Shown: piece after piece, positions 17,779 to 19,557 of the stretch
Position numbering within the stretch: the stretch's first letter is position 1
Layout: the number at the start of each line of letters is the position of its first letter
Assembly: GCA_015059485.1 (NCBI GenBank)
Contig: SVAH01000004.1
Location: 15,822 to 79,821 of the forward strand
DNA from: Bacillota bacterium
GTDB taxonomy: Bacteria > Bacillota_I > Bacilli_A > RF39 > UBA660
Direction of reading: 5' to 3'
DNA length: 64,000 nt
The notes under the pieces: model-generated
The model's input: the letters and a program-made list of their open reading frames with translations, nothing else
What the model was told of the DNA's origin: nothing
The model's database searches: none
Made by a program: the position numbers and the translations under genes

Positions 17779-19557
17779 TTATGGTGCTAAGACTAGGCGG
17801 AAACCGAAGTTGCTGTTGGAAATACCTGAGTTGCTGCTGAAGTAAAATGGACCCGCAAGGACACCGTTGTTGTAACCGCCGCCCTGTTCGAACCAAGGGG
17901 CGCTAGAAATAGCAAAGTGAGAAAGTTCTGAATACCAATTGTTATGATGTCCTGTAAATGTTCCTGTTGTATAATCATAGAATGGACCCATCTCTCCTGT
18001 TGCATCTCCTAAAATTCTTTTACTATAATCATAATTATTTGATGTTTCTCCATATACATCAAAATATTTACTTTCATAATTTGCTATAGTTGATGTAGTA
18101 AATCCACTTGAGCCTAATGTTCCACTTCTATATGATGACATATATTCATGTGCTCCACCACTCATATCATATACTCCTGTTATATTTCCTGTTGTTGTTG
18201 CTTTTACTCCAGTTGTTGTGTTATATGCTAAAGTTACATCTGATGTTGTTCCATATGTTCCTGGATATGTACTCTGATCTGTTCCATCTACTGCTGCATA
18301 TCCTGTTAAATAACTTGAATTATTATTTATTCTTATATCTTCACAGGTTCCGTTTGTACATCTTCCATACTGTGAATGGTATAGATAAGCAACTGCTCCC
18401 CATTCTGTATTTTTCATCATGTGTGAATTATCTGTTCTTTTATAATTATAGCCTAATTCAAACATTTGCTTTGTTGTTAAACTTTTTAATGATGTAGAAC
18501 TTGGTTTTACTGTAATACCTGATGTTGTTCCTGTTGTTTCAAATTTTGCTACCCATATTCCATTTGTATTCATACTTATGAATGCTGGATGGGTCATGAA
18601 CTTTCCATCTGCACAATTACCTGTTTCTCCACTGGAATTTGGTGTTGCACATTCTGTATCTGAATCTGTTGTATTTGTAAGTCCAAATACTATGTCTATT
18701 TCTTGTGCATCACTACCTAGTGTTGATGGTTGTCCACTTATTGTTGTACTAGTTTGGTTAGTATGGAATAATTTATATTTATATTTTGGTATCCATACAA
18801 AGTAAGATTCTATATCATTTTCTAATATTGTATCTCCAACATCATAAGTAGTTGATGGGTTAGATACTAATATTACTGCATTTGCCCACTGTTTATTTCC
18901 GTATTCATACCACTTATTATTCACATCAGCATATGTTACTGTTCCATCACTTGATAGTGTTACTGGTATTAAGTTACTAGTTAATACTGGATCTGCTCCA
19001 TTTAATATATTTTCTGTATATGTTGACGCTACTACATTTACATTTGTATCTATTCCTACTGTTCCTCTAAATACATGTCCTTGTGTTTCACTTTGATCTT
19101 CATTTGTATATTTATATTCTATTGTCATTGTATAACTTTTTGTTTCATTTGAATTTATTGATATATTTGTTTTTAAATATGTTTTCCCAGCATTAGTTAC
19201 TGGTAGTGGTGTTTCTGCTATTACTGAACCATTATTATCTCTTAATCTATATACTAAATCTTCTCCAAACTCATTTGTTATATTTTGCATATAGATATTA
19301 TATGTTACTGCTCTATTTGAATGATTTGTTACTGTAAATGTTTTTATGAAGCTATCTCCTGGTATCACTCCTGAATAATCTATATCTTGTGTTCCATTAA
19401 ATGTTATATCTAATTCATTTGTTTTTATTTTTGTTTCTGTTTCTTTTATTTTTGTTATTCTCGCACTAAAAAATGCATATGTTGATACACTTACTAATAG
19501 TAAAAGTATTAATACTCCCACTACTAAAAATAATGTTTGTTTTTTCTTATTCTTCAT
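17779..19557 (-). CDS. Secreted protein with a TasA/camelysin-like N-terminal domain (SipW-cognate-type signal motif STYAFFS) and a C-terminal FGE-sulfatase/DUF1566-like C-type-lectin-fold domain, probably non-catalytic
   Basis: 592 aa. The N-terminus MKNKKKQTLFLVVGVLILLLLVSVSTYAFFSARITK resembles the TasA signal (...GGGTWAAFND). The following ELDITFNGT...GVIPGDSFIKTFTVTNHSNRAVTYNIY resembles the TasA beta-sandwich. The C-terminus has TEWGAVAYL, GVYDMSGGAHEYM and a terminal FGFRLVL, which are FGE/DUF1566-like motifs, but there is no Cys in the last about 150 aa. Confidence 0.55.
   Translation of the reverse strand: MKNKKKQTLFLVVGVLILLLLVSVSTYAFFSARITKIKETETKIKTNELDITFNGTQDIDYSGVIPGDSFIKTFTVTNHSNRAVTYNIYMQNITNEFGEDLVYRLRDNNGSVIAETPLPVTNAGKTYLKTNISINSNETKSYTMTIEYKYTNEDQSETQGHVFRGTVGIDTNVNVVASTYTENILNGADPVLTSNLIPVTLSSDGTVTYADVNNKWYEYGNKQWANAVILVSNPSTTYDVGDTILENDIESYFVWIPKYKYKLFHTNQTSTTISGQPSTLGSDAQEIDIVFGLTNTTDSDTECATPNSSGETGNCADGKFMTHPAFISMNTNGIWVAKFETTGTTSGITVKPSSTSLKSLTTKQMFELGYNYKRTDNSHMMKNTEWGAVAYLYHSQYGRCTNGTCEDIRINNNSSYLTGYAAVDGTDQSTYPGTYGTTSDVTLAYNTTTGVKATTTGNITGVYDMSGGAHEYMSSYRSGTLGSSGFTTSTIANYESKYFDVYGETSNNYDYSKRILGDATGEMGPFYDYTTGTFTGHHNNWYSELSHFAISSAPWFEQGGGYNNGVLAGPFYFSSNSGISNSNFGFRLVLAP

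Follow-up and report, generated by a model that had tools for sequence, protein, structure and literature searches.

The window analysed here is a stretch of 64,000 nucleotides from the 108-kb contig SVAH01000004.1 (assembly GCA_015059485.1, positions 15,822 to 79,821 of the forward strand), part of a metagenome-assembled genome (MAG) labelled 'Firmicutes bacterium' in GenBank. It carries three genes, here called A, B and C, whose products begin with the same module of about 175 residues, resembling the fibre subunit TasA, and continue into C-terminal portions, the passengers, that differ from one to the next. The initial annotation of the window, made from the sequence alone, had described a shared N-terminal architecture at three loci; open reading frames (ORFs) lie at all three, and BLASTP and a family hidden Markov model (HMM) show that their N-modules are homologous. 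The genes and their parts, in positions of the window, are as follows.

17779 to 19557, minus strand: gene A, ORF of 592 amino acids; MBE6161084.1, 'hypothetical protein' in GenBank, locus tag E7158_02530.
19474 to 19557, minus strand: A residues 1-28, predicted signal peptide ending ...VSVSTYA, with predicted cleavage between A28 and F29 (hhalign, motif conservation).
19414 to 19473, minus strand: A residues 29-48 (FFSARITKIKETETKIKTNE), candidate donor strand, aligned with TasA 28-43; the role is inferred.
19042 to 19413, minus strand: A residues 49-172, TasA-like beta-sandwich core.
17782 to 19032, minus strand: A residues 176-592, passenger, possibly FGE/C-type-lectin-like.
38096 to 39364, minus strand: gene B, ORF of 422 amino acids with a GTG start; MBE6161099.1, 'hypothetical protein', E7158_02605.
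38870 to 39364, minus strand: B residues 1-165, predicted signal peptide (...VVGIDYS, followed by SYLAN) and TasA-like sandwich (BLASTP, HMM).
38099 to 38869, minus strand: B residues 166-422, enlarged C-type-lectin-like passenger of the IgA-peptidase N-terminal domain (NTD) / Lcl C-terminal type.
54905 to 62260, minus strand: gene C, ORF of 2451 amino acids; MBE6161120.1, 'hypothetical protein', E7158_02725.
61730 to 62260, minus strand: C residues 1-177, predicted signal peptide (...FTGVSYS, followed by FYKSN), candidate donor strand, TasA-like sandwich and candidate N-E-K residues (47% identity to A, column analysis).
55820 to 61729, minus strand: C residues 178-2147, repeat passenger (self-BLAST).
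55580 to 55819, minus strand: C residues 2148-2227, internal partial copy of the sandwich core (HMM positions 78-160, 33 bits).
54908 to 55393, minus strand: C residues 2290-2451, C-terminal domain, type unassigned.

The N-termini of A and C share 47% identity over 176 residues (BLASTP, E 1e-43), those of B and C 29% over 143 residues (E 6e-17) and those of A and B 23% over 209 residues (E 5e-15). A family HMM built from public relatives of the module gives 240 bits for A, 197 bits for C and 102 bits for B, with the match in B spanning residues 3-209. Chance or compositional similarity of the N-modules was considered and is ruled out by expectation values down to 1e-43, and the module of about 175 residues at the N-terminus of A, B and C is homologous. 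The alignment of the three N-termini that the initial annotation called for thus lies well beyond chance, with one correction: it had interchanged two of the motifs, since IDYSSYLAN belongs to the gene at 38096-39364 and VSYSFYKSN to the gene at 54905-62260. The second, internal TasA-like copy that it described in C is present but partial, consisting of the sandwich core only, with neither signal nor donor part (E 2e-8 against A by BLASTP); two matching stretches in C are also given by a public profile search. A fourth copy of the N-module was searched for in the window and none was found. An identical protein C is encoded on 8 independent metagenome contigs, so that this very long ORF is not an assembly artefact.

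The N-domain had been proposed to be of the TasA/camelysin type, and HMM, profile-profile and fold comparisons agree on that identity. Protein A matches the Pfam family PF12389 (Peptidase_M73) with 26.2 bits against a curated threshold of 22.5, whereas B and C, taken singly, give no PF12389 match in a Pfam scan. Across the family, PF12389 is matched by 95 of 114 representatives (best E 2e-11, always at profile positions 3-78) and by all six full-length B-like relatives (6/6). When a profile of 36 relatives was compared with 177,635 PDB sequences, TasA (5of1/5of2, 8aur) was the only match; the expectation values are weak (0.12 and 0.26), and the alignment covers the PGD..K.F..N block and the C-terminal QNxYQG strand. 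A phmmer search of PDB sequences with A alone returned one chance match only. Direct hhalign comparison of the 36-relative profile with TasA gave a probability of 90.3% (E 1.5e-6) and superimposed on TasA the signal peptide's end, the adjoining strand and the initial strands of the sandwich. The TasA query used for this comparison agrees with the stretches shown in the PDB-match alignment.

The narrower curated models draw a boundary around this assignment. Full-length A, B and C have no match in an NCBIfam scan, the family does not match TIGR04090, the BsaA model, and a family member encoded at L010, a locus of a related MAG, matches the NCBIfam TasA model (E 9.5e-8) below its equivalog cut-off. 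Judged by its sequence profile, the N-module belongs to the TasA/CalY/BsaA family, broadly taken, and forms there a minimal and divergent branch that the narrow curated models (TasA equivalog, TIGR04088 and TIGR04090) do not take in.

Structure prediction is consistent with this membership. An AlphaFold model of A residues 1-185 (mean predicted local distance difference test, pLDDT, 78) has a long N-terminal helix and a nine-strand sandwich with a poorly defined segment at 41-47, and in the fold comparison the module has a jelly-roll/beta-sandwich fold like that of TasA. Residues 29-48 are unpacked in this monomer model and predicted with low confidence; the donor segment is likewise unpacked in BsaA monomers (PMC11580942). 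Foldseek searches of the PDB returned mostly generic sandwiches, and the modelled N-terminal helix probably impaired them. The lists also hold subunits of donor-strand filaments, namely the cannulae protein CanX, a DUF1102 tube protein, Ena2A, Csu and PapG pilin domains and the Sulfolobus thread. Sandwiches of this kind are widespread, and ones unrelated to TasA score no worse than it does; the argument is therefore carried by the sequence evidence, with which the fold evidence is consistent.

The Pfam name Peptidase_M73 also suggests an active metalloprotease domain of the camelysin type that would process the passenger or host proteins, a function that we regard as extremely improbable here. 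No HExxH motif occurs in A, B or C, or within the N-terminal 200 residues of 146 relatives, so the 'peptidase' of the family name does not apply; the PF12389 match takes in only the signal and the first strands, and the assignment of CalY as a protease is itself regarded as a probable misidentification (PMC11580942).

In 201 relatives the end of the hydrophobic segment follows the pattern G(69%)-x-S/T(95%)-Y(86%)-A(84%)-Y/F-F/Y-S/T-A(84%), and conservation extends into the segment behind the motif, with V/I at position 32 and T-V/I-I-K at 40-43, and on to K70 (98%) and F72 (100%). In the hhalign alignment, T26-Y27-A28↓F29-F30 of A is paired with T25-W26-A27↓A28-F29 of TasA, cleavage site (arrow) included. 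The mature chain of TasA and its donor strand both begin at residue 28, the donor strand being residues 28-38 (PMC9674648). Because the motif aligns with the TasA cleavage site, cleavage is predicted after A28 in A, S25 in B and S26 in C. The earlier description of these N-termini as resembling SipW-cognate signals finds support in this alignment with the SipW cleavage site of TasA, though A, at 14.7 bits, stays below the TIGR04088 cut-off of 19. A type IV prepilin signal was also considered for the three proteins and ruled out, as there is no G↓FxxxE and no PF07963 match; the N-termini of A (MKNKKKQTLFLVV...), B (MLKKVFLTV...) and C (MKSKKLTLFII...) lack G↓F-T-L-x-E.

A peptidase suited to such signals is encoded among the relatives. 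At L010, a gene for a SipW-type signal peptidase of the archaeal/endoplasmic reticulum type (201 amino acids) lies 410 bp upstream of, and on the same strand as, the gene for a family member of 545 amino acids. This peptidase scores 112.5 bits with TIGR02228 (cut-off 51.85) and 105.6 bits with the Bacillus SipW model, and its gene is preceded by that of a secreted protein with the signal ...TASYAWFTAN. A second SipW-type ORF is found 10 kb from another family member, and homologues of the L010 peptidase occur in a conserved cluster with two sipW paralogues and several proteins bearing ...ASYAWF(T/S/N)... signals. A metagenome scan with the SipW-like protein found 3 distant loci only and is uninformative on co-occurrence. 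Judging from these neighbourhoods in related genomes and from the motif, the signal class of the family is plausibly SipW-cognate.

The order of the conserved cluster (L010 7283-11635; the whole of loci L039, L041 and L043) begins with a type IV pilin-like gene (in L041), a membrane protein of 227-237 amino acids, a secreted protein of about 305 amino acids with the ...TASYAWFTAN signal and the first SipW-type peptidase. It continues with a protein of about 510 amino acids, a DUF2357 protein, two ...ASYAWF... proteins, a protein of about 190 amino acids, the second SipW-type peptidase and a giant protein with BspA-type leucine-rich repeats. This cluster of related uncultured Firmicutes has the look of a TasA/BsaA-like locus for a matrix or filament that has not been described before. 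At a further locus (L001, 10627-11148), a gene for a 173-residue protein lies directly downstream of that of a stand-alone TasA-like subunit of 207 amino acids. The signal of this protein (...ICISTTVYASYNYFAKD) is similar, but a sandwich cannot be recognised in it and Pfam gives no match; it may be a TapA-like partner.

By homology with TasA and BsaA, we lean towards a mechanism in which cleavage by SipW is followed by insertion of these proteins into, or their anchoring to, TasA-type fibres through a donor-strand module that carries the passengers as cargo. A, B and C would be surface proteins exported by Sec and of a common design, in which an N-terminal cassette of some 175 residues precedes a variable C-terminal passenger, lectin-like in A and B and a repeat adhesin of 2,270 residues in C. 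The cassette would consist of a SipW-class signal peptide, a conserved strand some 20 residues long and a sandwich of the TasA/CalY/BsaA family in minimal form, and would substitute for the usual anchoring of Gram-positive surface proteins. Cleavage after Y-A/S would be the work of a SipW-type signal peptidase whose gene lies in another part of the genome, and the freed strand (residues 29-48 of A) would insert into the sandwich of a neighbour by donor-strand exchange, as in TasA and BsaA. The passenger-bearing proteins would then be internal, nucleating (TapA-like) or terminal subunits of the fibre, partly together with stand-alone subunits such as P0035, and their passengers would stand out from it as cargo with binding or enzymatic functions. 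When FAST, His or FLAG is fused to the C-terminus of BsaA, the protein continues to polymerise and is exposed at the surface (PMC11580942), so that a C-terminal passenger is mechanically plausible.

In some members the joint between subunits might in addition be covalent. BsaA polymerises by donor-strand exchange and forms an isopeptide bond between N35 and K74, with E56 as the catalytic residue (PMC11580942). Candidate columns for the same residues in the 201 relatives are N36 (63%), E56 (70%) and K70 (98%), in the numbering of P0008. The first two vary together: 105 sequences have both, 22 have N36 only, 36 have E56 only and 38 have neither, which corresponds to an odds ratio of 5 and a Fisher p of 1e-6, phylogeny being ignored. 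At these positions (residues ~38, 58 and 72 in C) C has N, E and K, A has K, D and K, and B has S, N and K; Asn and Glu are thus both missing from A and from B, lost together. TasA has Ser at the Glu position, which fits its lack of the triad. We hypothesize that N36, E56 and K70 are the equivalents of N35, E56 and K74 of BsaA. In members that keep Asn-Glu-Lys (C, not A or B) the joint would possibly be locked by an isopeptide bond, as in the BsaA of C. perfringens.

The module extends far beyond the three genes of the window. A profile search of 1.84 billion representative proteins matched 4,013 clusters at E ≤ 1e-3, of which 2,176 reach E ≤ 1e-10. Both figures are maxima, since canonical TasA-like proteins and signal-only matches may be among them. 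Among the 150 matches listed, the module starts within the first ~50 residues in every case (150/150), and lengths range from 97 to 5,625 amino acids with a median of 488. The passengers recognised by Pfam include DUF285, ALK/LTK glycine-rich, Listeria-Bacteroides repeats (Flg_new), DUF6273, BspA-type leucine-rich repeats, GDSL lipase, pectate-lyase/beta-helix, CBM6 and FGE-sulfatase. The modular family suggested at the outset from three genes is therefore modular indeed, on a scale far beyond them. Among the species representatives of GTDB, close relatives are confined to some six MAGs of uncultured bacteria, which bear the labels Bacilli or Erysipelotrichaceae and, in one case, Muribaculaceae, and each of which has 6-12 or more paralogues of 168 to 2,561 amino acids; the family is large, paralogous and unannotated, and belongs to uncultured low-GC Bacillota of the gut. 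The assembly CAZHOG01, 'uncultured Muribaculaceae' (Bacteroidota; L010, L016-L021, L023-L025, L029 and L030), holds 12 or more paralogues and SipW-type peptidases, and its Muribaculaceae label is probably wrong.

Stand-alone forms of 168-219 amino acids are common. One of them, P0035 (219 amino acids, E7158_05080), is encoded in the same MAG as the window and is 54% identical to A overall, with 17 of 22 residues equal in the presumed donor strand. The usual means of surface attachment are missing from the family. A C-terminal membrane anchor was found in none of 146 relatives (0/146) and in none of A, B and C, and an LPXTG sorting signal is likewise absent from both sets, the single regular-expression match being to a sequence with no true signal. 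The possibility that these proteins are sortase substrates was rejected on the absence of that signal. In the absence of both LPXTG and a C-terminal anchor, the N-module is the only shared candidate for surface retention.

Secreted-enzyme passengers such as GDSL lipase and pectate lyase would also suit cleaved and released proteins, in which the module would be an export signal followed by a folded N-domain (for instance one that binds carbohydrate or the wall) and the products would be soluble or wall-associated monomers that do not polymerise. The fold searches, which match carbohydrate-binding modules (CBMs), GOLD and other binding domains about as well as TasA, would allow it. We consider it unlikely, given that the sequence evidence is specific to TasA/CalY rather than to CBMs, that among the matches listed the module is strictly N-terminal and always accompanied by the special signal motif, and that the passenger-free forms of 168-219 amino acids would be left with no obvious role.

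Several observations weigh against insertion into fibres after cleavage by SipW, and many of them would suit an uncleaved signal-anchor with a stalk, the main rival explanation and one that we hold to be possible but doubtful. The sandwich would then be a membrane-proximal spacer, and each protein a monomeric, tethered lectin or adhesin with no fibre involved. The hydrophobic segment, at about 20 residues, is sufficient for a stable membrane anchor. Besides the cut-off missed by A, B, C and one stand-alone relative have no match to TIGR04088 at all, while the control N-termini scored 54 bits (CalY) and 42 bits (TasA). A signal peptidase gene is absent from the window and from the 10 kb beyond its right end by wide regular expression, tblastn and HMM, as the initial annotation had already noted of sipW in the window, and there is no sipW in the loci of the other MAGs. 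The sandwich is also used as an internal domain in C and as a tandem second copy at L010, and plain use as a spacer is possible. With other anchors absent an N-terminal tether would suffice, and BsaA oligomers are themselves membrane-anchored (PMC11580942). On the fibre side of the question, the PF12389 match spans positions 3-78 of a profile of 196, and Pfam and hhalign together cover only the first ~80 residues of the module; the equivalence with the BsaA triad was drawn from position numbers and covariation; and A, B and C lie dispersed among housekeeping genes, in no matrix operon. An uncleaved anchor, on the other hand, leaves unexplained why the S/T-Y-A motif and the strand behind it are conserved in about 200 divergent relatives, why the motif aligns with the experimentally known cleavage site of TasA, and why a SipW gene lies directly upstream of a family member; a stalk of 150 residues would, moreover, hardly be able to carry small passengers through a Gram-positive wall.

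Donor-strand insertion after cleavage can be extended, tentatively, to the family as a whole. The module might be a general N-terminal handle by which dozens of lectins, enzymes and giant adhesins per pangenome are placed in heteropolymeric decorated fibres together with stand-alone subunits, a subset of them locked by Asn-Lys bonds. Such a handle would replace sortase and LPXTG and be interchangeable with type IV pilin handles. We put this forward as a suggestion whose chances we rate as low.

The passengers of the three proteins differ. For passenger A, an FGE-sulfatase-like domain had been proposed, for which the indications are weak: the match to the Pfam family PF03781 (15.9 bits, E 0.01) is below the threshold of 23.3, and a profile of its orthologues finds the uncharacterised 5vf4_A at E 1.4e-3 and PvdO, of the FGE fold, at E 0.11. 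The orthologues themselves, encoded in related MAGs, are 58-61% identical. Passenger B has no Pfam match (including DUF1566 and DUF6273) and no PDB sequence match; the proposed DUF1566-like character appears at the level of fold only. Its closest known counterparts are the NTD of the Thomasclavelia ramosa IgA peptidase (9QA6) and the C-terminal domain of Legionella Lcl (8Q4E, DUF1566-type), at 17% identity; unlike the T. ramosa enzyme, B has no catalytic metzincin domain after the passenger. The same passenger (34-35% identity, 96% coverage) is found behind type IV pilin N-termini in P0355 (MKKNNKGFTLVELL...) and P0360 (MNKKGFTLIELL...), both of which match PF07963, and behind a lipoprotein/collagen-like N-terminus in P0356. 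The cargo of B is therefore mobile, and in some relatives it is carried by another kind of filament subunit.

Passenger C contains about four repeats of roughly 375 amino acids, at about residues 370, 832, 1203 and 1582 (self-BLAST). By eye it is beta-helix-like, with sequence resembling Listeria-Bacteroides repeats at its start. C has no Pfam match at all, and its C-terminal 181 residues gave chance matches only against PDB sequences. Of the beta-helix/LamG adhesin proposed in the initial annotation, both parts are seen by eye only, and LamG finds no database support. Another giant ORF, at 1-12107 on the minus strand, is more than 4,040 amino acids long and continues past the left boundary of the window. 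Its product starts with a signal peptide of the ordinary kind (...SVEVFA↓DE); the first 1,200 residues contain three ALK/LTK glycine-rich domains, and there are many cadherin-like beta-sandwich repeats. A paralogue of the module-bearing proteins in another MAG (L027, 2,561 amino acids) ends in the same glycine-rich domain, and with this domain shared between the two, the same type of cargo is evidently exported with either N-terminus.

The genomic setting differs for each gene. Gene A lies upstream of rimP-nusA-infB-truB, B adjoins a pair of genes for a MarR regulator and an ABC exporter, and C lies between cotJB/cotJC and a STAS/sigma-factor pair. The associated features in the window are listed below.

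19580 to 19608, minus strand: promoter-like site of gene A, TTGAAT-17-TATAAT, 10/12, 23 nt upstream of the start; a consensus match only.
62283 to 62311, minus strand: promoter-like site of gene C, TTTACA-17-TATAAT with a TG extension, 11/12, 23 nt upstream of the start; a consensus match only.
54180 to 54890, minus strand: protein of 236 amino acids with one N-terminal membrane helix, 14 nt downstream of C.

No terminator-like site was found between C and the gene for the 236-residue protein, which has no Pfam match, and the synteny of the two genes is kept in L037 and L038. The smaller gene is probably co-transcribed with C, and its product could be an accessory factor for it. The spore-coat genes cotJB/cotJC (62350-63373) lie directly before C, and a STAS-domain protein and a sigma factor (53095-54090) directly after the C operon. 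Given these neighbours, the organism is probably a spore-former with a cell wall, which bears on the route that large adhesins would take to the surface. Elsewhere in the window, an MvaI/BcnI-family restriction endonuclease is encoded at 48656-49396. In a relative (L004, 1-2015), the gene for a 556-residue family member is immediately preceded, on its upstream side, by one for a prepilin peptidase (A24). Secretion of BsaA and BsaC in C. perfringens is reported to depend on type IV pilus genes (PMC11580942), and the links to type IV pili seen here (the A24 gene, the pilin-like gene in the sipW cluster and passenger B on pilins) recall, as an analogy, that dependence.

In comparison with known systems, the module shares with TasA of Bacillus subtilis (fibre structure 8AUR) and CalY of B. 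cereus the T/S-aromatic-A↓aromatic/A-F end of the signal, the N-terminal strand, the PGD..K.F..N and QNxYQG blocks and the jelly-roll. It differs from them in the size of the sandwich, about 125-150 residues against about 230 in mature TasA, in the position of the genes outside an operon of the tapA-sipW-tasA type and in the large C-terminal passengers of most members, of which TasA and CalY have none. A parallel exists with BsaA/BsaB of Clostridium perfringens (sipW-bsaA-bsaB-bsaC), a Clostridia-type Firmicute in which TasA-family subunits likewise occur as several paralogues per genome with a link to SipW (PMC11580942). As with BsaA, there is an association with type IV pilus genes in the relatives, and the candidate Asn-Glu-Lys residues lie at nearly the same residue numbers, whereas natural passenger fusions are found here and have not been reported for BsaA. 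TapA of B. subtilis and AbpB of Pyrobaculum, like the proteins described here, carry an N-terminal donor-like strand on other beta domains and have been proposed as fibre starters and possibly adhesins (PMC9674648, PMC9245690). Lacking the full TasA sandwich, they can donate a strand but cannot accept one, in contrast to the full acceptor domain of the present family, whose passengers are also far more varied. Chaperone-usher tip adhesins (FimH, PapG) and type IV pilins with C-terminal modules offer a more distant comparison: here the handle is N-terminal and the domain order is reversed, and compared with the FimH/PapG systems the setting is Gram-positive, with no chaperone or usher and no sequence homology.

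Natural passenger fusions are not described in the papers searched, on TasA fibres, TapA, BsaA, archaeal bundling pili and cannulae; these report subunits of a single domain, paralogues within the same operon and adhesin genes nearby. The view taken at the outset, that the arrangement is not a described system, stands in that no paper on such natural fusions was found. There are partial precedents: TapA and AbpB, the NCBI product name 'SipW-dependent-type signal peptide-containing protein' and the two-domain tip adhesins of chaperone-usher systems. What is new is the architecture and its scale, with a TasA module as the constant N-terminal handle for many unrelated passengers that carry no sortase signals.

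TasA-type fibres are currently viewed as homopolymeric scaffolds of single-domain subunits, and a natural family of cargo-bearing members would change that view. If the proposed mechanism is true, donor-strand fibres of Gram-positive bacteria can be functionalised in a manner that resembles chaperone-usher tip adhesins, and the natural design rules for cargo-bearing TasA/BsaA biomaterials would be at hand. It would explain the sortase-free attachment of large adhesins in abundant uncultured gut Firmicutes, and as many as several thousand protein clusters at present annotated as 'hypothetical protein' would acquire a role.

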